Below, one piece after another: positions 24,673-58,900 of a DNA stretch of 64,000 nt (positions are counted from its first letter, which is position 1; every line of letters starts with the position of its first letter). The notes beneath the pieces were generated by a model. The model made no database searches, was not told the DNA's origin, and was given only the letters and a program-made list of their open reading frames with translations. Source of the stretch: Podarcis muralis (Eukaryota); assembly GCF_964188315.1 (NCBI RefSeq), contig NC_135666.1:1674001-1738000 (forward strand), written 5' to 3'. The position numbers were made by a program, and so were the translations under genes.

Positions 24673-25399
24673 TGTTACCGGAAAAATCCGAGGGCTCCCT
24701 TGGACAAAACAAAGACACCAACCAGGATAACTTGGAGCAAAACAGCAGCCTGTAGGCTTGGCCTTTATTGAACTGTTGCAACAGGGTGTTCCCCTCACTT
24801 GCAGGAGAGAGGAAAGACCCAGAAAGATGGTGTGCAAGACCTTATAAAAACTTTTGAAATTCCCCTCCTCTAGGTCAAGCCCACCCCCAGAAACATCATG
24901 CATACATTACAGAAAGGAGGGGTTGAGGGAGGAGTTGGTGGTGGTAACCTGAGTGTCCTGTCACCTGGCTGGTTCCTCCTTTCCCCCCTCCCCATGAGTC
25001 ACTTCCAGGAGACAAAGGGGAGTTGGCAGTTTCCTGCCCCCAGAGGGAAGATCTGATCATTGTCCTTTGTTTCAGTCCATGCTGAATCCACTCCCATATG
25101 CAAGTTCTTTGTGATCTTGATTGCCTTCTGTCTGGGATCATCAGGGTTGGCATAGCAACGGGGCAGGGCTCCTGTGGATGTGCTGGGATGGTGAAGTGAT
25201 TATGGCTGACCAGAACCAAGCCACCCCCCTTTGATAGTCCTTGTCATATGGAGTAAAATAAAATGGAACAGTGCAAATCCGATATGTGGTTGATTTTTTA
25301 TGAATTTATAACAGAAGGGTAGCGTATGTAGTGTGTGAGTGTGAGTGTGTGTGAAGTTTGTACAAACTGAATGATGGGTGGGGTGGGTTTCCTGCTACA
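24673..25399 (-). mobile_element. Solo LTR (727 bp) inside the KIF4 retrocopy
   Basis: TG...CA termini (minus strand tgtagc...gtaaca), 4-bp TSD ATGA (24669-24672 and 25400-25403), minus-strand AATAAA ~90 bp from the 3' end. Confidence 0.85.
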
Positions 25400-25575
25400 A
25401 TGAGGGAGTGATTTTTCTCCTTCAGAAATTGCACCTTTTCTGAGGACCCACAAACCATAGACACTGGAAGGGTCCCTCCATGAGGTCTGCAGCAGTAAGA
25501 CCTGCAGCTTTAGCCGGCTAATCTCTGCTGCCTGATGATCAGTGTCCACTATCGGCTTGTTCTTAATTTTCTGGC

Positions 25576-26221
25576 TGTTACGGAAGGGGGGGGCATGTCT
25601 TCTTCACTACAAATATTTGCTCAATTTCTCTAGGACTCCATCACCCCTGCTCAATTTCTCTAGGACTCCATCACCCCTCCCCTGTCCTCCATAATCTCTC
25701 AAGTAAGGTGTCAAGACCCTAATCCTGTCAAAATCACTCTGCCAAACCTTTCCTCCTGGCAATGCCAGGTGACAGACTACGCATACATGGACCATTGTCT
25801 TCTCAGGATGTGCTTATCTGCGCATATCTCCAGCTCTGCATATTCCCCCCTCCCTCCTCCATATCTCCAGCTCTCTGCATATTCCCCCCTCCCTCCTCCA
25901 TATGTTAATCCAGTGTAACCCAACCTCTCCTTAATGTATTCATGATGTAATCTGTGTAACCCAACCTTTCCTTAATGTATTCATGATGTAACTGGGATGC
26001 ATTTTGCACTGTATTCTGGGACATGGAGGGAGTTTCAAAAGTTCATGTCACCCCTTTTTCGCTGTTCAATCTCGTCTTGAACCTGTTGCGCAATAAACTT
26101 GGATCTTCTGCAGTTTGCTCCTGTCCGGCTGAGCTCATTTTCTTCCGCAGGGACCCGCGGACTTACTTAGTCCGACGAGCTGGGTGGCAGGGTAGCCCCG
26201 CACCCAGATTTAGCCGTAACA
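25576..26221 (+). repeat. 5' LTR
   Basis: TGTTACGG...CCGTAACA; AATAAA at 26092-26097; three tandem duplications in U3. Confidence 0.93.
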
Positions 26222-26223
26222 GT

Positions 26224-26242
26224 TGGCAGCCCAACGTGGGGC
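26224..26242 (+). promoter_or_regulatory. Primer-binding site, tRNA-Lys(1,2)-like
   Basis: tggcagcccaacgtggggc equals the canonical TGGCGCCCAACGTGGGGC with one extra A, 2 nt after the LTR end. Confidence 0.8.
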
Positions 26243-26434
26243 TGGCGGTTCTCCCGCGTTGCTGACCGGGCCCCCCGAAATCTTCAGCCGGCACCAGGCC
26301 ATTTTGCCTGGGAAGATCCTTTGGACCCCCGGCCATCTTCCGGGCGGTAATCGAAAGCCCCAGGAGTTCAGCCAGGGAGCAAAGAGGGATCCAGCCGGCT
26401 TATTCATCGATCCCGGGATCATCATAGAAGACAC

Positions 26435-26440
26435 GTGAGT
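26435..26440 (+). promoter_or_regulatory. Putative major splice donor in the element leader
   Basis: cac|GTGAGT ~190 nt after the PBS, the usual position for a retroviral leader donor. Confidence 0.5.
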
Positions 26441-29400
26441 ATAAGGAAAAGGAAAATCCAGTGCACTGGTGGGAAGGGGGTGGAAATCTCTTGGCAACTG
26501 AATTCTCTGCCCTCCTCTCTATCGATCCTTCTTACCTTTCTCTTGGTCCGGTTAGTGAGAGAGAATGTGGACCGCTGCTCGACCCAAAAGGGGGGTTCTG
26601 AGCTCTATCTCTTTCTCCTCTCAAACCCTCCAGTCAGCCGCACCAATTGAGAGTCCGAAAGTAAGACGGAGAGACCCGGCTTGGAAAGACAGCCGACTCT
26701 CCGCAACGGGCATCTCAGTTGAAAGCAAGGGGCTGGAGTTCTTCTTCCGAACTTCCCGAGCGCCCTTACGGAGGGGGCAGGAAGTGGTCTTGCTTTCTAT
26801 CCCAATCCCAGCCGCACTGGTCGGTGCCACGTAACACGTGTATCGTGCGTGAGCCCGCTTCCAAAAGCAAGGGGGATTTTCAGTTCAAAATTCTATCCAA
26901 GGATCACCCGATCTGGCACCGCATGGCACGGGCGTCCAGTAGGGCCCCTTTTCCTGAGATTGTGATGATAGGTAGGAGGTTGCCAGGAGGGATAGCCCAT
27001 GAGGAATTGGGCAGGATCGGCAGAGTGGAAAAGGACCCCAGGTTATTGAATAGGAAATAGGAAAGGAATAGAAAAAGGAACCGAGTGGGTGAGGCTCGTT
27101 AAATTGTTAAGAAGTTGCCAAGCAACAAGGAAAAGAAAAAACCCTAAATAGCCCCCTGTACAAGTTACCCAAATCCAAATCAACCCCTCTCTTTCTCCCT
27201 TCTCTATCCCAGAAAAAAAAGAAAAAACAACAACAAAAAAGCAACAACAATGCATGCATATATAAAGGGGTACCCAGTCAACTAAGCAGTGTGAGCCCTG
27301 CCAGTTTGGTTAACTGGTTGTGTCTGAAGAGGCAAGGAGGCTCTTAAAACCATGTGGGACCTTCCTACTAATTTCACTTAATGAAGCAAAAGGGAGCGGC
27401 CCAACTCCTTGCAATAACCAACTAATGAGAATATATATGTTTACATGTTGTCTGTTATGTGTGTTGTCTGTTAATACATATATGAAAATATGTATGTTTA
27501 CATGTTGTCTGTTACGTGTGTTGTCTGTTCCTTCTGTCTCTGACAGACTGCCTTTCTTAAGTGTGCATAGTTTAAACTGCAAGCTTGCTTCAAAAGTTAA
27601 ATCTAAGGAAGCCATGCTGGATCTTAGCAGTCCTGAATAAGACAAAATGAGAATGGAGGGTGCAAATGTTTGTTATTTGAGAGAGGCTCCGAAGAGTCTT
27701 TCTCCGAGTAGTTTAAGTGAGGAGGGTGATTTTAAGTCTAGTGGTAAATGATGTTTTGTTGTAACTTTTGAGTTTGTGAGTGTACATCCGTGTTCCAGTC
27801 TTTTGTTCCAGTATTTTGAAATGTGCTGTGAAAAAAACTAATGTTTCTGCTGCAAAAGCCTAGTTGAGCCAACTGCTCTCTCAAGCTAAAATGCAGTGTA
27901 TGTATTTCATTAAGCATATGCCTATGAAGGTATGGTGTTCTTTCTGAGAAAAATTGATATTAAATGTAGAGGCTTCAATGGCCAGCAAAATTGTCTATCT
28001 GAGTCCAGTCCTGATATCAGTCTCTATAAGACTTCCTGGCCTCTTTCCTTAGAAAATGCCCCCCTTGTTTCATTCTGTCTCTTTCAGTTTTTTCTCCCTC
28101 CTTACTTCTGTGCCAGGTAAATTTACTCCTGAGTAAGCTTCCTTTAAAGGAAACTGAAAATAGGGGGGAGCAATCTTTCCTAAGGTACCCTGCATCTCAC
28201 TTTCCTAAAAAATAATAATCTAAATTAGGCTTACTATTCCTCTGCAAGTTCAAGAAAAATTGTTCACTTTTGTATTCCTTTTAAATCAAATATATGGCTG
28301 TTTTAACTATACTTGCACTCTTTAGTCTAAGGAAGAAACTCATTATAAAGTTGGGTACTTTTATTTTCCTCTTCCTTAGTACATGATAGGCGCATGGCTT
28401 GTGATCGGTGCATGGCTTGTGGTCTCTTCCCCAGTAGTGCCTGTGTACATAAGTATGTGTGTGTCTCTTTGGTAGTACAAATCTTGCTGTGAAACCTTGC
28501 TGTGAACCCTATAATTCGGAGGGTTGGACTAGATGACCCCAGGGTCCCTTTCAGCTCTCCCAATTTGTGGCTGTGTGGAAGGACATGTGTCCACAGGCAC
28601 TGGAGGGTAATTCTTAAATTCTGGTGTGGTGATGGAGTTGAAATTCGGCCTAGCTTTGCTCTTTAGTTTAAAGGGTGAGAGGTAAAGCTGTGATGTTTTG
28701 AAGCACAACTGGTAATATCAAGCATTTGAATGATTACAGTGTTTATCATTTTGTCTACTATTTAAAAATCAGACTTAAACTCTGGCTATTTCCCCCATAT
28801 ATAAGGGCGTGGCATTGTTCCATGAATAGCCAGAGGGATATTAGCCCTTCCCTGTACATAAAGGAAGCAGTCCCTTTGCTTGGGCTGAAATTGCTAGTTT
28901 TGGTGAATACTTGAATTGCTGAGTTTCTCTTTTTTGTTTTAAAATCTAACCCTATTTTTTAAATCTACTCCTTACCCTTCATTACCTTTATTCAAATGGT
29001 AATTTAGCCAAAAGATGCAACATTTTCAATAGTATAAAAGGTTTGCTGAGACATGAACTCTGCACATGCACGGAGGCTAGATCAATCAAAAAAAAAAAAA
29101 GGAGAGAGAGAGAGAGAGGAAGGAGGGGGAACTGTAGGGGGGAGAGAGGAGGTTTGGAGGGTGTGTACTGCAGGGAGAAAACTTATCCAAATTTCCTTAT
29201 GTAAAACTTGGAACCATTGAGGGAAATCACCATTACTGTGTCTTGCTCCAGAGGCTACGTAAGACAAAAAAAAAAAAAGTTAAGTACTGGACCATCAAAA
29301 GTCAAGAGGTTGCCAAGTTTCAAATCTTAACATGCCAAATTCCTTTCACAGGTAAATATCAAAGCATTCCCCCTTCAATGGGATTTAAATCACAGACTTT

Positions 29401-29943
29401 GTTTGTGTGCATTTTAGGAACAGCATTCCTGACAGGCTTCTCACATGAAATAATTTTCCCTTTTAACAGGATATGTGAACCCCGATAACAAAGTGTTTGT
29501 CCCTTTTTTTTCCTCCCACAGCGACTTTCTTTCTATTCCGTGAAACAAGTCTGAATCCCTGTTATATTAGTGACTTCTATCTCTTTGTGGCTTTGACACT
29601 TTTAAAATTACAAATAATCTGTTTTCATTTATTTAATCCGTTTTTCCATGATGTCTATGAAGTTAATCGAAGCACAATCAAACATTGTTTGTGGAATGGT
29701 ATTTGTTTACCTTTTGCCTGAGCATTTCTTATTAATTCTGTCATTTTGGCTAGTTCAAGGTACTTGCACAACTTTAAATTGCCATTCATTTTTTCTTGGT
29801 ATTAAGTCATTTCCCAGTATTTTGCTATTAACATTCTAGCCGATGTTGTCACATTAAGAAACACTCTTTTATTTTCATTGTTACTTCAGATTTCTTAAAA
29901 CTGTGTGTCTTAGCATTTATTTATTTTTGGTTCCTCATAGGTC

Positions 29944-29945
<2 letters not shown>

Positions 29946-29986
<41 letters not shown>
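29946..29986. repeat. (TG)n microsatellite inside the LTR element
   Basis: Perfect TG run. Confidence 0.95.
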
Positions 29987-29989
<3 letters not shown>

Positions 29990-32055
29990 ATTGTTATTTT
30001 AACCATGTATTTTTTTTTTACAGTTCTCTTTCTCTACATATGGAGTAATTTTTTATTTAATAATATGGGAGGGAGAAGAAAAACCAAAGTGAAGGAAAGC
30101 AAACAAACTTAACAGATAATAACAGTAATTATATGGAAATGTGATAATAATATTGAAATGAATAAAATGCTTATTCCACTAAGATTTTGTTATTTGCAGC
30201 TTCCCCCAAACCCTGCCCCTTACAGGATATCACTTCTACAGATGTGCGATGATGAAAAAGCAGCAACAACCCCTCAACTCAGTTCTTCACCAACAGACAC
30301 CAGTTTTCAAAGTGCCCACAGCTATCTTCTTTCAAAGGATACAGACTGACGGGGGAGTGGGGCTGACAAAGGGGGGAGGAGTTGAATTGCAAAGACATTT
30401 TTTTCACTTTTGAGATACATACGTAAAGGATCACAATTGTCTCAATATGCAACTGATATTTAATTAGTTTGTTTTGTGTATTATGTGTTATTATGTAGGA
30501 ATGTTGAAGTGTGTCTGATTATGTGTTATCTCCACAAAGGGAAAAATTTCTGTATAATGTAACATACATAACTATGAACAGCAGAAGGATATGGCTTACA
30601 CCCCAAGTCTTCATGGAGGACTCCCATATATTACAATGCTTTCCAATAGAGCAGACTATACTTAGATTAAGTCAACTGATGATCATATTTCCTTGTCCCA
30701 CCTGGCACTCTGCAGAGTGCCAACCTTCCCTACCTATTTATTTATGTATTTAATGTTTTCCTATACATGAAGTTCCCAGATTTTTACTATTTCTTTCTTT
30801 CTGTTCCAGAAAACTATTTCAAATCTTTTCTATGACTTCTCTGCATCTCTTGCAGATTCAGTACTGTCTTCAAGTAGCAATTGTTCTGTATTTATTTACT
30901 TATTAATCTTGGTTTTCCCGTATAGCTGTGAAATTAATCTAACCACAACCAAGTATTATTATCGGAACCATATTTTATCAGGTAGATTTGAAGCAACGCT
31001 CCTTATTATTATTTGAGATGTTTTGATTAGGATGCCAGATGAAATTGGGTGTAGATCATGTCCCAAATTTTATTTATTTATTTGAGGACACGACTACCAT
31101 ATGTTATATTATTATTGATAACAAGAAACGTGTATATGCCTTGATGTAGCAAGAATGGTCCCTTATAGAGTTAAATTGACTCATTTGGACAAATGCCCCC
31201 TTAAAGAATGGCTTTGGTTTTAACATATTGGTTTTGAAAAGTTGAGAACCACGGGGCAAGATAAATTCAAATTGGACTCTACTGGAATTGGGCACGTGTA
31301 TCCAGGCTGCAACTAGCTTTTGGTCCTTTAAGAGCAAGTGGACAACTTTCCATGAGTGCGAGACCAGAGCCTGCAATAATGAAAAACCCCATAGAAAGAC
31401 CAAGGCGAAGACATATCTCTCATGATGTGTCCAAGCCTGTGCCAGCTATGGTGAGTGCCAGGCGACACGGTTAAATGAAAGCCCTGAGGGGATTCAACAG
31501 GATGTGTTACTGTACCACTATGCCGGTGTGAGACCACAGAAGAGCTAGCTTGGCACCTGAAAACACAAAAACGGTGGGGCTAAAAAGCAAACTGCATTTT
31601 TTTTCCCAGTCAGTAGTGGACCTTCCTGCTAAATGTAAAGCATACACCACTATTGAAAGTGTTTCTCCCAAGAGCTAGGGTGCCACAAGTAATTTAGTAA
31701 CAAAATACAACAGATTTTTTTTAATATAATACCCTATACGCAGCTACCTGCACTGCTATACTTGCAAATGACCGTAAGAGGCATGGCTTGCAAGTCCCTT
31801 TCAGCTTTGCATAAACCCACACATCTGGTACGGTAGATACCAAGTTATTATTTAGCGCATATATATAACACGCATGTACATTGTATTCGTCCGTGTTGCT
31901 CCCTCTTTTGCTGCCCTGCTCAACCCACCTCCTTTTCCATTAGAGCCTATTCCCACCCACAGGGCACCCCTACATTCACCAAGATTTAGGGTGCGGAGAA
32001 AAGATTTGCAAGTTCTTACAGAACTTTAATGCAAATCTATCTCCGAATGGGGGAC

Positions 32056-32701
32056 TGTTACGGAAGGGGGGGGCATGTCTTCTTCACTACAAATATTTGC
32101 TCAATTTCTCTAGGACTCCATCACCCCTGCTCAATTTCTCTAGGACTCCATCACCCCTCCCCTGTCCTCCATAATCTCTCAAGTAAGGTGTCAAGACCCT
32201 AATCCTGTCAAAATCACTCTGCCAAACCTTTCCTCCTGGCAATGCCAGGTGACAGACTACGCATACATGGACCATTGTCTTCTCAGGATGTGCTTATCTG
32301 CGCATATCTCCAGCTCTGCATATTCCCCCCTCCCTCCTCCATATCTCCAGCTCTCTGCATATTCCCCCCTCCCTCCTCCATATGTTAATCCAGTGTAACC
32401 CAACCTCTCCTTAATGTATTCATGATGTAATCTGTGTAACCCAACCTTTCCTTAATGTATTCATGATGTAACTGGGATGCATTTTGCACTGTATTCTGGG
32501 ACATGGAGGGAGTTTCAAAAGTTCATGTCACCCCTTTTTCGCTGTTCAATCTCGTCTTGAACCTGTTGCGCAATAAACTTGGATCTTCTGCAGTTTGCTC
32601 CTGTCTGGCTGAGCTCATTTTCTTCCGCAGGGACCCGCGGACTTACTTAGTCCGACGAGCTGGGTGGCAGAGTAGCCCCGCACCCAGATTTAGCCGTAAC
32701 A
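32056..32701 (+). repeat. 3' LTR
   Basis: Identical to the 5' LTR by eye except at 26126/32606 (C/T) and 26191/32671 (G/A); preceded by gaatgggggac. Confidence 0.93.
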
Positions 32702-33129
32702 CTGGCCCTATCAGCATAGCATAGTCTCTTCAAGGTTGGAATCTCCTGGGCTCACACAGGCAACCATCAAGCTGTGGCTATTGCTTCCCAAGGAATCTTG
32801 CAAAAGGTGTGTTAACTTGGAGTCCTTATAAGGGACAAAATTGCCCTTTTTGGTTTCCTCCCCAAGGGTGCTGATGGCATTCCCCAGACAGAGCAGAGGA
32901 GTCCTTTGTTGATGTTGATCCCTTCCCACAGTCGATCACCTTCTACTTTGGCCTCCTTTTGCCTTTCTGAACCAGCAAGTTCTGCGGGGTGCAGCTTGGC
33001 ATGAAAACTGGTGTTCCTGACACTTGCTTTTCTGCTCAATGGTCATGGTGAACGTGGCGTGAGAGTGAGATGACTGGGTGCTCATTGCCCTGGCAGCCAC
33101 CCTTTGGGAGGATCAGATTGTTACTATTG

Positions 33130-52979: not shown

Positions 52980-55900
52980 ATGGATGAGCAAGACTCAGCT
53001 GGCCCAGAAGCAGGAAGGGGCCATGCCATCAACACTGGGAGCAGTGAGGGATTCTGGGAAAGCTCTGTGAAGAAGATCCTGGGTGAGGAGGACACCCTCC
53101 ACTCTGATATGAAGAGCCAGCAGTTCAGGCAGTTCTGCTACCAGGAGGCCAAAGGACCCCGAGAAGTTTGCAGCCAACTCCACCACCTTTGCCATCAGTG
53201 GCTGAAGCCAGAAAGGCACACGAAAGCTGAGATGCTGGACCTGGTGATCTTGGAGCAGTTCCTGGCTGTCCTTCCACTGGAGATGGAGAGCTGGGTGAGG
53301 GAATGTGGAGCGGAGACCAGTTCCCAGGCGGTGGCCCTGGCCGAAGGATTCCTCCTCAGTCAGGCAGAGGAGAGGAAGCAGGCAGAGCAGCAGGTGAGAG
53401 AGACTGTCCTCTGGATATTCCCAAGGGGCTCTGAACAGGAGGGAGAGTATCCTGAAATCCTCTACTAAGCTTTTGGAAAGCATCCCCAAATGGTTTTCCC
53501 TTTGCCATTCCTTTTCTAATATTTCTCTCCATCCTCTGTTCTGAATCCTTGTTGCTCTTTCAGGGAAAGATTATCTTTGCAGAAATGGGCCTGGATTCCT
53601 CTGAGGCAGAGAAGACTCTGTTGGTCAGGAAAGACAGGCCAATAGGTAAGGAGGAAGGAGCATTTTCTCCCTTTGGTTGCATTTTATGGATTTAGGAACT
53701 CATCTGTGGGTTCTTTTCATCTTTTGAGGGAAGACACTTGGGGCCAAGAGAAGGCCCTCTGCCTGGTTCTCTGTAGCTTTACTCCTCGCAGTGAGGGAAC
53801 TGTCAGAAGGCCCTTGGAGCTGGACCTCAGTGTCCGGGCTGAACAATTGGTGTGGAGACGCTCCTTCAGGTCTACAGGGCTGAGGCTGTTTAGGGCTTCA
53901 AAGGTCAATACAGTGGTACCCCGCAAGACGAATGCCTCGCAAGACGGAAAACCCGCAAGACGAAAGGGTTTTCTGTTTCGGAGGCGCTTCGCAAGACGAA
54001 TTTCCCTATGGGCTTGCTTCGCAAGACGAAAGCCCATAGGGAAATCTCCGGGGACCTGTTTTAAATTGCTGGCGGTCGGGAGCAAAGACTTTCGCCCACA
54101 GCCGGCCTTCAGAAGAGGTCCTGGACCTCTTCTGAAGGCCGGCGGGGGGCAAAAGTCTTTGCTCCCCCCCGCCTGCCTTCCCAGGACAGCGGAGACTTCT
54201 CCGCTGCCCCGGGCGATCTTAAAATGCTGGCGGGCGGGAGCGAAGCGTTCGCTGCCGACCCCCAGCATTTTAAAATCTCCCCGGGACAGCAGAGAAGTCC
54301 CACCCCGCTCTGGATGCCAGCGCAGAGCTGTCTGCCGTCCCGGGATCAGCGCAGCTCTGCGCGGCCATCGGGAGCCGGGGCGAAGCCCGCCCCGCTCCAG
54401 ATGGCCGCGCAAAGCTGCCTGCAGTCCCGGGACTGCAGGCAGATCTGCGCCACCATCCCGAGCGGGGCGCTAAGTCCCGCCCCGCTCGGGATGGCGGCGC
54501 AGAGCTGTCTGCCATCCCGGGACTGCAGGCAGATGTGTGCCGCCATCCCGAGCGGGGCGCTAAGTCCCGCCCCGCTCTGGATGCCGGCGCAGAGCTGTCT
54601 GCCATCCCGGGACTGCAGGCAGATGTGTGCCGCCATCCCGAGCGGGGCGCTAAGTCCCGCCCCGCTCTGGATGCCGGCGCAGAGCTGTCTGCCATCCCGG
54701 GACTGCAGGCAGATGTGTGCCGCCATCCCGAGCGGGGCGCTAAGCCCCGCCCCGCTCTGGATGCCGGCGCAGAGCTGTCTGCCATCCCGGGACTGCAGGC
54801 AGATGTGTGCCGCCATCCCGAGCGGGGCGCTAAGTCCCGCCCCGCTCGGGATGGCGGCGCAGAGCTGTCTGCCATCCCGGGACTGCAGGCAGATCTGCGC
54901 CACCATCCCGAGCGGGGCACTAAGTCCCGCCCCGCTCGGGATGGCGGCGCAGAGCTGTCTGCCATCCCGGGACTGCAGGCAGATCTGCGCCATCATCCCG
55001 AGCGGGGCGCTAAGTCCCGCCCCGCTCGGGATGGCGGCGCAGAGCTGTCTGCCATCCCGGGATCAGCGCAGCTCTGCGCGGCCATCGGGAGCCGGGGGCG
55101 AAGCCCGCCCCGCTACAGATGGCCGCGCAAAGCTGCCTGCAGTCCCGGGACTGCAGGCAGATGTGTGCCGCCATCCCGAGCGGGGCGCTAAGTCCCGCCC
55201 CGCTCTGGATGCCGGCGCAGAGCTGTCTGCCATCCCGGGACTGCAGGCAGATGTGTGCCGCCATCCCGAGCGGGGCGCTAAGTCCCGCCCCGCTCTGGAT
55301 GCCGGCGCAGAGCTGTCTGCCATCCCGGGACTGCAGGCAGATGTGTGCCGCCACCCCGAGCGGGGCGCTAAGTCCCGCCCCGCTCTGGATGCCGGCGCAG
55401 AGCTGTCTGCCATCCCGGGACTGCAGGCAGATGTGTGCCGCCATCCCGAGCGGGGCGCTAAGTCCCGCCCCGCTCGGGATGGCGGCGCAGAGCTGTCTGC
55501 CATCCCGGGACTGCAGGCAGATCTGCGCCACCATCCCGAGCGGGGCGCTAAGTCCCGCCCCGCTCGGGATGGCGGCGCAGAGCTGTCTGCCATCCCGGGA
55601 CTGCAGGCAGATCTGTGCCGCCATCCCGAGCGGGGCGCTAAGTCCCGCCCCGCTCTGGATGCCAGCGCAGAGCTGTCTGCCGTCCCGGGACTGCAGGCAG
55701 ATCTGTGCCGCCATCCCGAGCGGGGCGCCAAGTCCCGCCCCGCTCTGGATGCCGGCGCAGAGCTGTCTGCCATCCCGGGACTGCAGGCAGACGTGTGCCG
55801 CCATCCCGAGCGGGGCGCTAAGTCCCGCCCCGCTCTGGATGGCGGTGCAGATCTGCCTGCCGTCCCGGGATCAGCGAAGCGTTCGCTGCTGACCCCCAGC

Positions 55901-58900
55901 ATTTTAAAATCTCCCCGTGTCCCGGTGAGATTTTAAAATGCTGGGGGTCGGCAGCGAAGCCCTTGTTCCCCCCCAGCCCCCCCAGCCTTCAGAAGCCCTT
56001 GTTCCCCCCCCCCCCAGCCTTCAGAAGAGGTCGGGGGACAGACTGTCCCCGGACCTGGTCTGAAGGCGGTTTCCCTAGGAACGCATTAATTGATTTTCAA
56101 TGCATTCCTATGGGAAACCGTGCTTCGCAAGACGAAAAACTCGCAAGAAGAAAAAACTTGCGGAACGAATTAATTTCGTCTTGCGAGGCACCACTGTACC
56201 AACATGTTGAATTGTTCTCGGAAACATACTAGGAGCCAGTGTAGGTCTTTCAGGACCAGTGTTATATGGTCCCAGCAGCTGCTCCCAGTCACCAGCCTGG
56301 TAGCCTCCTTCTGGCTTAGTTTCTGAGTCCCCTTCAAAGGTAGCCGCGCATAGAGTGCCCCATCTGTAGTTAGAGGTGCATTGCTTCACCTCGAAGAAAA
56401 GCATGTGCTAATGGCCACTTCCCTTTGCCTCTCACAGGTGACAGAATGATGCTGCCAAGACTTCTTCTTCCATCTTTGCATGAAGGCAGAGGAGAAGCAG
56501 CAGCTCTGGAACCAGATCAGGTAGGGAGACGGAGCATAGCGGGCAAAGAGGCTCCTGCTCTTGACTTTGTAGGATATGAAACCCAAGAGCAGTCAAGTAC
56601 ACGATTCCTAGAGTGAACATGTTTACACATGGGGAGGAATGTTTGTCCAGCCAGCAGGTAAACTTCCTGTTTCCTTCTGAGCTGGGACAGACTTCCTCTG
56701 CATGTGACTAGAGGTGGGCGTGGCCTCACCTGTGCAGGTAATGACAAAAGCACAGGGCAGGGCAGCCATCTCTCTCTCTTTGACTACCTGCATCGAAGAA
56801 ACAACGTCTTCTTAGCCAAAGATGCTCTCTTGGCAAGAGAGGACAGAGGGATTGTCTCCTTATGAGATAGTTTCCAGGTATATGTTACTTTTCTAAGCTA
56901 AGTCTGCCTTCTGGGATCTGAATGTGAGCAAACTCTTTTTTATACTTTTGTAGAAGACTGTGTCATGTCTTATCTTTTATGAGGGAATAAGGGGAAAATA
57001 CCAGAACAGTTATTATAGAGGCTTTAGCGAGCCTGAGCAAAACGGGTCCTCTGCAAAGTTTAAAAATAAGGGAAATGTTAACACAAGTTAGATAAGGATA
57101 TAATCAGACAATATATCCTTTCCTGCATCCCTGAACAGACTTCTGTCAAAATTGTCCTTAACAAAGGCTGTAAAGGCTACTCCAGAAGGTTAAGTTCAGA
57201 GAATGATTAACAACCACCTCATGTTCACTAGCCTTCTGAATGATGCTAGTATTATCTATCAGTAGCTTCAGTTTTATATACCAATTTAACATTTAATACT
57301 AAGATAGGCTTCTCAACAGCTGACAAACCATAAAAAAGAGGGGCCAGAATTCACCTCATGAGTCCCATCAGTTACACTATAGGGCTTTCCCCCTCCTTCC
57401 CCTCCCTGTGACCCCCTGCACCCCTGAAGTTGGCTGTAGGACATGGCGAAGGTTTCCCCCTCCAGAACAGTAGACGGGGAGAGGAAAGGGGGGAATGTTG
57501 AGCAGAGAGAATGATCTGAAAAACACCAGGTGGAGTTCCACCCATTTACACAAAGATGAATACCCATCAATAAAATACACAATAAAACAATTCCATTAAG
57601 AGGTTAAAACGTACACCCATAATTAAAATGTACAGCCAAACAATCCCATTAAAACCATAGGGCAACAAACAGACACAAAACAACAAAACAATGTGTAGAA
57701 GATTATATTTCTGCTGTCTGAGAGCAAGACTTTTCTTCTTTTAGGGCCTAGTATGCTTTGAAGATATAGCTGTTCATTTCACAGACGAGGAGTGGGCATT
57801 GCTGGATCCTGACCAGAGAGCTCTGCATAAGGAAGTCATGGAGGAGAATGGTGGGATCATGAACTCTCTCAGTAAGGCTCCCTGTTGGATCATGATATCT
57901 CTTTCGGAATTTAAGATCCCTTGGGAAGAATCTGGGAGAGGAGGAGACTTAGTCAGTTGTGGGAAGGCAGGGCCTTCAGTCCCCACAACTGGCTCATAGG
58001 GGCCAGACCCAGAGGGAAGTATTGCTGTGCTCACTAGGCCTGACACTTCTGAGCAGACACTTCTGTTGCTTCTCATAAAGAGTTAACTTCACTTACTCCT
58101 TGTGATTTATTGCTGCCCCACTCCTGACACTCAGGTTCCCATACATATGTTCATTGATGCCTGTCAACAAAAGCAGTGAAGCCTGTTGTAAGGCCTTACT
58201 TTTAATTCCCTTCAGTTCTTCCTGTGTCCCAAGCATTAATTAGCAAAGTTCAATAACTGAGGGCTGCGTTTCTCCCTGAGGCTGTCATCCGTTTCTTTCT
58301 TTGTTGCAGATGGTGATGAATTGGAGATTAAGAACCAGGGAGACCATGACCATGTCTACACCATGGAGAAGCAATGTAAATATTCTGAGTGTAGAGAGAA
58401 CTTCAGTCAAAGCTCCCTCCGAAGAAATCCATTGGGGAAGAAATCCTATCAATGCCTGAAATGTGGGAAGAGCTTCACCTGGAAAAAAGATCTCACTTCC
58501 CATCAAAGAATTCATACAGGGGAGAAACCATATCAGTGCTTGGAATGTGGGAAGAGTTTCACCTGGAAGGAAAGTCTCACTTCCCATCAAATAATTCATA
58601 CAGGGAAGAAACCATATCAGTGCTTGGAATGTGGGAAGAGTTTCACCTGGAAGGAAAGTCTCACTTCCCATCAAATAATTCATACAGGGGAGAAACCATA
58701 TCAGTGTATGGAATGTGGGAAGAACTTCGCCTGGAAGAAAAGTTTCACAGCCCATCAACAGATTCATACAGGGGAGAAGCCATATCAGTGCATGGAATGT
58801 GGGAAGAGCTTTACCCAGAAAAAAAGTTTGAAAGCTCATCAAAGAATTCATACAGGGGAGAAACCATATCAGTGTTTGGAATGTGGACAGAGCTTCGCCT

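Follow-up and report, generated by a model that had tools for sequence, protein, structure and literature searches.

Gene-less class I endogenous retroviruses in the lizard Podarcis muralis and a candidate helper family with matching ends

Endogenous retroviruses (ERVs) that depend on a helper are a known kind of element, and several reports describe the closest systems. ETn elements have long terminal repeats (LTRs), lack coding capacity, and are mobilized by MusD (PMC6466679); they measure 5.5 to 6 kb, and the ETnI type departs from MusD in its LTR and 5' interior (PMC2265474). VL30 is a nonautonomous class I element with 4-bp target site duplications (TSDs), LTRs of 436 to 681 bp, and several types of primer binding site (PBS) (PMC4859993), and it is copackaged with murine leukemia virus (MLV) (PMC6466679). 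In recKoRV, the LTR-leader and the env tail-LTR of a virus are joined to the noncoding interior of PhER (PMC6112702), and a Repbase review describes recombination between ERV families as frequent (PMC5753468). Here we analyzed a window of 64,000 nucleotides of Podarcis muralis (assembly GCF_964188315.1, contig NC_135666.1, positions 1,674,001 to 1,738,000 of the forward strand) and the element that it holds at positions 25576 to 32701. We put a probability of roughly 0.8 on this element being a young copy of a multicopy, gene-less class I ERV family mobilized in trans by a family with intact gag, pol, and env, or by a close ancestor of that family. Its anatomy, the copy number of its family, the independent insertions of its noncoding interior, and the existence of a coding family that matches it in its ends and overlaps it in age were established directly. 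We refer to the gene-less family of the window element as family A, to a second gene-less family as family B, and to the first of two coding ERV families as the candidate helper.

The element, which lies on the plus strand with all its features, consists of two 646-bp LTRs (25576 to 26221 and 32056 to 32701) around an interior of 5,834 bp. Both LTRs start with TGTTACGG and finish with CCGTAACA, and they differ only at LTR positions 551 (C/T, at a CpG) and 616 (G/A). This divergence of 0.31% would presumably correspond, at the vertebrate rates that we assume, to an age in the order of a million years or less, with a wide error. The 5' LTR has inverted termini of 8 bp, and its U3 holds short tandem duplications. 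The element is flanked by a perfect TSD, CTGGC (25571 to 25575 and 32702 to 32706), whose 5 bp are atypical of the family (4 bp in 22 of 27 resolved copies and 5 bp in the other 5). The PBS (26224 to 26242) is complementary to the 3' end of the genome's own tRNA-Lys(CTT) genes plus CCA, with a single base inserted behind the fourth position. It belongs to a leader (26222 to 27213) that is homologous to the helper leader, stops just short of the helper gag start, and carries a splice donor (GT at 26435) and conserved hairpins, which make this region a candidate for packaging. The leader folds more stably (-183.8) than column shuffles do (-161.7 +/- 6.4; 21 sequences), and covariation comes to only 3 two-sided changes, which lends weak support to a possible packaging structure. 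A purine tract, short and interrupted, precedes the 3' LTR at 32056. An earlier note on this DNA, made from the sequence alone, had described the LTR pair with its two differences, the perfect TSD, a tRNA-Lys1,2-like PBS, the leader splice donor, and the purine tract, and all of these were confirmed.

Downstream of the leader, the interior is built of an A-rich junction with a noncoding segment found only in family A (27214 to 27700); a first part of a noncoding core shared with family B (27709 to 30541), which contains microsatellites and, at ~28508 to 28560, a short host-repeat tail that we take to be CR1-like; a noncoding segment that most family A copies have and that was undetected in the family B bins (30542 to 31126); the second part of the core (31127 to 31854); a 34-codon remnant of the helper env C terminus (31876 to 31977); and a 66-nt 3' untranslated end with the polypurine tract (PPT) (31990 to 32055). 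The longest stop-to-stop frame has 131 amino acids (aa), and the longest frames from an ATG have 89 aa (sense) and 101 aa (antisense), which corrects the upper limit of 113 aa set for any open reading frame (ORF) in the earlier note. Searches for coding similarity, run with tblastn (17 helper frames and 87 homologues) and with profiles, stops being read as X, found no gag or pol in the interior and matched only the env tail (65% at the aa level to the candidate helper; E, 4e-7). The claim that no gene is recognizable thus held for gag and pol and missed the env remnant; apart from this tail of ~100 nt, the interior is not a decayed gag-pol-env, a point that the note had wished to see checked. 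Gypsy-type pol did not match the interiors, and an Rfam scan gave two sub-threshold matches that we took as chance. A strong match of P0047 to the first 210 nt is to a gene model that translates the leader and was not counted as coding evidence.

Family A is dispersed through the genome. The LTR as a query returned 904 candidates, and the two interior halves returned 403 and 365 (40 scored each). Exact patterns for the junctions found 90 PPT-LTR sites and 64 LTR-PBS sites, from which one chance match was dropped; 50 of the remaining 63 LTR-PBS junctions have a PPT partner within 30 kb, in 43 cases at 5.0 to 6.5 kb. Among the 27 copies resolved out of 32 fetched, every TSD is different, the LTRs fall into subtypes of 519 to 944 bp, and no more than two LTR substitutions are seen in 21 copies. 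"Very young" is apt for the window copy, but the copy is not the youngest, as many sisters have identical LTRs. Interiors of nearest neighbors are up to 99.94% identical, and their flanks are without similarity; the longest ORF from an ATG in any of these copies is 143 aa, setting aside one nested insertion. The window copy itself is 98% identical to copy L032 over 3.9 kb and mosaic elsewhere. Because near-identical, ORF-less interiors stand at independent sites, the interior was already noncoding when it was copied, and we regard the nonautonomous spread of family A as almost certain. The earlier note had proposed both that the interior was noncoding before integration and that further copies with distinct TSDs should be sought, and the two points hold together.

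The PBS is variable within the family. Classified by eye, the 63 junctions comprise 22 perfect matches to tRNA-Lys(CTT), 38 one-base insertions, 2 sites that we take to be of the Lys3 type, and 1 substitution. The insertions are of four different kinds (16, 10, 7, and 5 copies), and since the copies are related, these counts are not of independent events. An insertion is found in 1 of 11 helpers, and one hybrid form of the PBS is common to helper L081 and family A parasites. Some copies have themselves been hit by other elements: a helper-family copy is nested in a family A copy in the opposite orientation (L168 to L169, on C10), and family A copies duplicated on C20 (L043) contain a beta-like ERV. 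The extra kilobase of copy L036, considered as a possible env, proved to be a DNA-transposon-like insertion with terminal inverted repeats.

PPT junctions without a partner led to a coding family with open gag, pol, and env at 19 of 28 loci. Its frames (gag, 613 to 673 aa; pol, ~1,300 aa; env, ~695 to 730 aa) contain the domains Gag_p30, protease, reverse transcriptase (RT), RNase H, integrase, MLVIN_C, and TLV_coat, and an RT search gave 28 stop-free matches at least 89% identical. Ten LTR pairs, of 1,136 to 1,174 bp, are 99.1 to 99.9% identical, with TSDs of 4 bp in six, of 5 bp in three, and unmatched in one. This family and the window element have in common the leader up to the gag start (82 to 88%), a Lys-type PBS, the env tail, and the last 66 nt with the PPT (95 to 98%), and the splice-donor motif is carried by all 10 helpers and all 27 family A copies. 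In two sister subfamilies of the parasite, with LTRs of 882 and 921 bp, the LTR is 85 to 90% identical to that of the helper. A coding family of the kind that the note had suggested looking for exists, and the note's proposal of a helper-dependent family is supported, with mobilization in trans being what we infer from the matching cis signals. The gag-pol junction of the helper reads TGA and then CAATTA, in frame with pol, in all 21 gag frames printed (loci such as L071 to L104), a hexamer that we take to resemble a plant-virus readthrough signal; in gamma-like loci the junction is TAG and then G (5/5 checked).

Judged from its sequence features, the helper is a class I ERV, with Gag_p30, in-frame gag-pol readthrough, an MLV-like RT whose best solved-structure match is MLV RT, the integrase C terminus, a TLV-type env, and mostly 4-bp TSDs. 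The retroviral class, which PBS and TSD had left open, can thus be given from the helper. In the RT tree, the helper falls in a lacertid clade (100/99), outside a clade (96/99) that holds marmoset, bat, and snake sequences and the genome's own gamma-like RTs, and we rejected its classification as a gammaretrovirus proper on this placement. Named relatives of the helper pol are from Podarcis and Zootoca. The nearest nonlacertid RTs, from turtles, fish, opossum, and pigeon, are ~50% identical, with an unresolved backbone among them and no named epsilonretrovirus in the tree, and "epsilon-like" is a lead only. Large retrotransposon derivatives (LARDs) of plants have a long noncoding interior between intact LTRs. 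Membership of the element in Gypsy/LARD was rejected, as its ends are common to a retrovirus-type family with env and not to a plant LTR retrotransposon; of the label "LARD/VL30-like" given previously, the analogy with VL30 and ETn stands and LARD does not, the ends being those of a class I ERV. The genome is rich in young ERVs with open frames, comprising three gamma-like groups and two related non-gamma class I families. As helpers of family A, the gamma-like ERVs were discarded (13 loci, no match to the element beyond a microsatellite), as was the second coding family (10 loci, little beyond weak patches of 61 to 69%).

Family B is represented in the window by a solo LTR of 727 bp (24673 to 25399, minus strand; TSD, TCAT), 176 bp from the family A element. 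This LTR has 2,582 candidates genome-wide, and its 3' part is ~68% identical to the LTR of the second coding family, whose RT is 69 to 73% identical to that of the first helper (pol frames exceed 1,260 aa in 24 of the 30 matches) and whose env is open at 9 of 10 loci checked for pol and env frames. A PPT-LTR pattern for family B gave 37 sites. Paired LTRs were found at 27 of them, 22 with two substitutions or fewer; a 4-bp TSD was found in 20 of 26; and no frame from an ATG exceeds 120 aa. The family A core was present in 35 of 36 newly fetched family B loci, over more than 2 kb in 34. The LTR-leader, PBS types, and 3' end of family B track the second coding family (65 to 76%) and not the first. 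The core (27709 to 30541 and 31127 to 31854, ~3.5 kb) is 74 to 92% identical between families A and B in blocks (75 to 80% in its second part), and the two leaders do not align. As the core is far more alike than the ends, transfer is argued for rather than codivergence. Blocks of L214 are 97 to 98% identical to family A copies, and the family A copy L039 falls inside the family B clade in a tree of core blocks (SH, 98), consistent with an exchange of core blocks between the families. Outside families A and B, only short repeat matches to the core were found among the fetched loci. A broken gag N terminus of 90 codons, absent from family A, is retained at loci of family B, L229 among them.

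Transcription of the family is low, and a poly(A) site is used. Bulk run X23 (~12% of the run) gave 634 reads at 92% likeness, most of them in the LTR; depth in the interior was at most ~6, mostly sense. Seven molecules end at 26112, 15 nt past the AATAAA inside the 5' LTR (26092 to 26097), and we place the likely R/U5 border there from these family-level reads. Single-cell run X21 showed a similarly low depth, on both strands. None of the splice joints listed starts from the 26435 donor, at this low depth and with 16 further joints lying outside that set.

The element sits in an intronless, already broken KIF4 retro-pseudogene on the minus strand (best solved-structure match, KIF4), the 5' part of which occupies 32707 to 33020; the pseudogene resumes at 25575 and runs to ~24500, and it also harbors the family B solo LTR. 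An intron-containing KIF4 parent is found on C13 (86 to 90% per exon), and there is a further copy, 82% identical, on C8. A 439-nt contig of run X1 matches 25389 to 25575 with 4 differences, and its alignment ends exactly at the TSD and does not continue into the LTR. Since the KIF4 paralogues are only 82 to 90% alike, this contig is best read as an empty allele and suggests that another individual lacks the insertion. Elsewhere in the window, a cluster of SCAN-type and C2H2 zinc-finger genes, whose domains were recognized by eye, spans 7100 to 59300 with insertions of long interspersed nuclear elements, and at 54000 to 56000 there is a GC-rich (~70%) tandem array in which both strands have long open frames.

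Several observations weigh against mobilization by the candidate helper as it exists today. The signs of mobilization in trans, mosaic copies and the exchange of LTRs and PBSs, are indirect. The LTR subtype of the window is only 71 to 80% identical to present helper LTRs over the 3' part, its U3 end differs at the third base, the window PBS carries a bulge, and in the leader tree the parasites do not fall within the present-day helpers. The window LTR has a closer match (83%) in L166, an older and broken coding copy, so that the mover of the window copy may belong to a lost or unsampled lineage; the LTR subtype probably descends from an earlier helper branch. As for recent activity, the empty allele is a single contig from a single run, with the flank uncovered in run X7, and only 28 of the 634 X23 reads are at least 99% alike, so the RNA signal belongs to the family and is not assignable to the window locus. 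It is conceivable, though we think it unlikely, that the family is nonautonomous but moved by another helper, be it gamma-like ERVs, the second coding family, or an exogenous virus, and that the shared ends reflect ancestry only, in the way that VL30 is copackaged by MLV. Among the abundant gamma-like gag matches in the genome, 150 were scored, and most of these have open frames of >600 aa; the core blocks exchanged by the two parasite families imply some cross-family copackaging; and the window LTR subtype is only ~75% identical to that of today's helper. Yet the PPT region is nearly identical to that of the proposed helper, the U5 end is common to this helper only, sister subfamilies gained LTRs of the helper type, the hybrid PBS occurs in both L081 and parasites, and the gamma-like and second coding families have different ends.

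The remaining explanations fare worse than mobilization in trans by the candidate helper or its ancestor. A payload in the interior, in the form of a small spliced accessory protein or a functional RNA, seems improbable: the splice donor is retained, acceptor-like sites lie near 30199 to 30225, some subfamilies have ORFs of 129 to 143 aa, and the core is kept in two families, but these ORFs differ among subfamilies and are broken in the window copy, no Rfam match reaches the threshold, the listed joints of the low-depth RNA data include none from the donor, and the core is full of indels and microsatellites. Because the interior was already noncoding when copied, decay in place, gene conversion, and segmental duplication are excluded as general explanations. 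A coding provirus that decayed where it stands could have kept the 34-codon env remnant, as could one whose LTRs were homogenized by gene conversion; however, ~0.3% LTR divergence is too little time to erase gag and pol beyond detection, and near-identical ORF-less interiors at unlinked sites with different TSDs and flanks refute both versions, including a one-off conversion between the LTRs, leaving them hardly any credence. Even less is left for copies produced by segmental duplication or by assembly artefacts. It is true that some of the C10 and C20 copies are part of duplicated blocks whose flanks are identical, but nearest neighbors among the 27 resolved copies lack any flank match, which refutes duplication for the dispersed copies, and in independent DNA runs the summed depth of the interior is far above that of the flank.

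We propose that the 5' LTR would drive a full-length RNA, which the leader would package into helper particles; tRNA-Lys would prime reverse transcription, and the helper integrase would integrate the product, leaving a 4- to 5-bp TSD. The family may have originated by a recombination that swapped nearly all of the gag-pol-env of a helper-family ancestor for a preexisting noncoding core and left ~1 kb of leader and ~180 nt of the 3' end. The exchange of blocks between the parasite families would be continuing, likely through template switching in copackaged RNAs. A more speculative idea, to which we give well below even odds, is that the ~3.5-kb core is a selfish RNA body, indifferent to which helper serves it and under selection for a function in cis (export, efficient packaging, size, or avoidance of silencing), which gains the ends of different retroviral lineages and is now spreading on two coding ERV families simultaneously in a wild lizard; the recurrent one-base PBS insertions of the Lys-primed branch would then perhaps evade PBS-directed silencing.

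The lizard system resembles ETn/MusD in being a noncoding LTR element of ~5.5 to 6 kb whose LTR and internal ends are common with a coding family (PMC6466679, PMC10089650, PMC2265474), in the parasite outnumbering the helper, and in its apparent insertional polymorphism, and the divergent ETnI LTR and helper-like ETnII LTR recall the short-LTR and the 882- and 921-bp subtypes here. ETn/MusD is, however, class II (betaretrovirus-like) with a MusD that lacks env, whereas the lizard helper is class I with an open env; trans mobilization was demonstrated for ETn and is proposed here, and no sequence homology is claimed. With VL30, as described, the lizard family has in common class I, nonautonomy, 4-bp TSDs, heterogeneous LTR lengths, several PBS types, and the absence of coding capacity; in contrast, VL30 keeps a stop-riddled gag and pol and uses Gly, Pro, or Gln primers, while the lizard element has neither gene, a Lys primer, and a leader and PPT clearly homologous to those of a candidate helper. 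The closest architecture is that of recKoRV/PhER, where an interior obtains a new helper by taking its ends; one koala partner is a recent invader, and no reciprocal recombinants were reported (PMC6112702). In the lizard, by comparison, one core stands on two end sets from two related coding families, with comparable copy number and age and with exchanged blocks, and the core was seen on no third, "native" chassis. Subfamilies related to mysTR in the deer mouse are likewise abundant and ORF-less, with the interior replaced by nonhomologous sequence and homology to the coding family near the 3' LTR, and they differ in their class II, env-less helper and rodent host (PMC10089650). Listings of the literature on lizards and on shared interiors, from a collection that lacks most subscription journals, showed no such helper-parasite pair in lizards.

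What appears to be new here is the reptile host, the identified candidate helper, and the one noncoding core on two retroviral end sets. Nearly all known ERV pairs of helper and parasite come from mammals (ETn/MusD, VL30/MLV, mysTR, and recKoRV), and P. muralis adds a case from a reptile, where the parasite and its candidate helper are both young and, it appears, polymorphic, with two parallel pairs joined by one core. Gene-less elements escape pol-based ERV surveys, yet they outnumber their helpers in this genome. The system makes helper switching and the function of nonviral interiors testable by population and RNA data.

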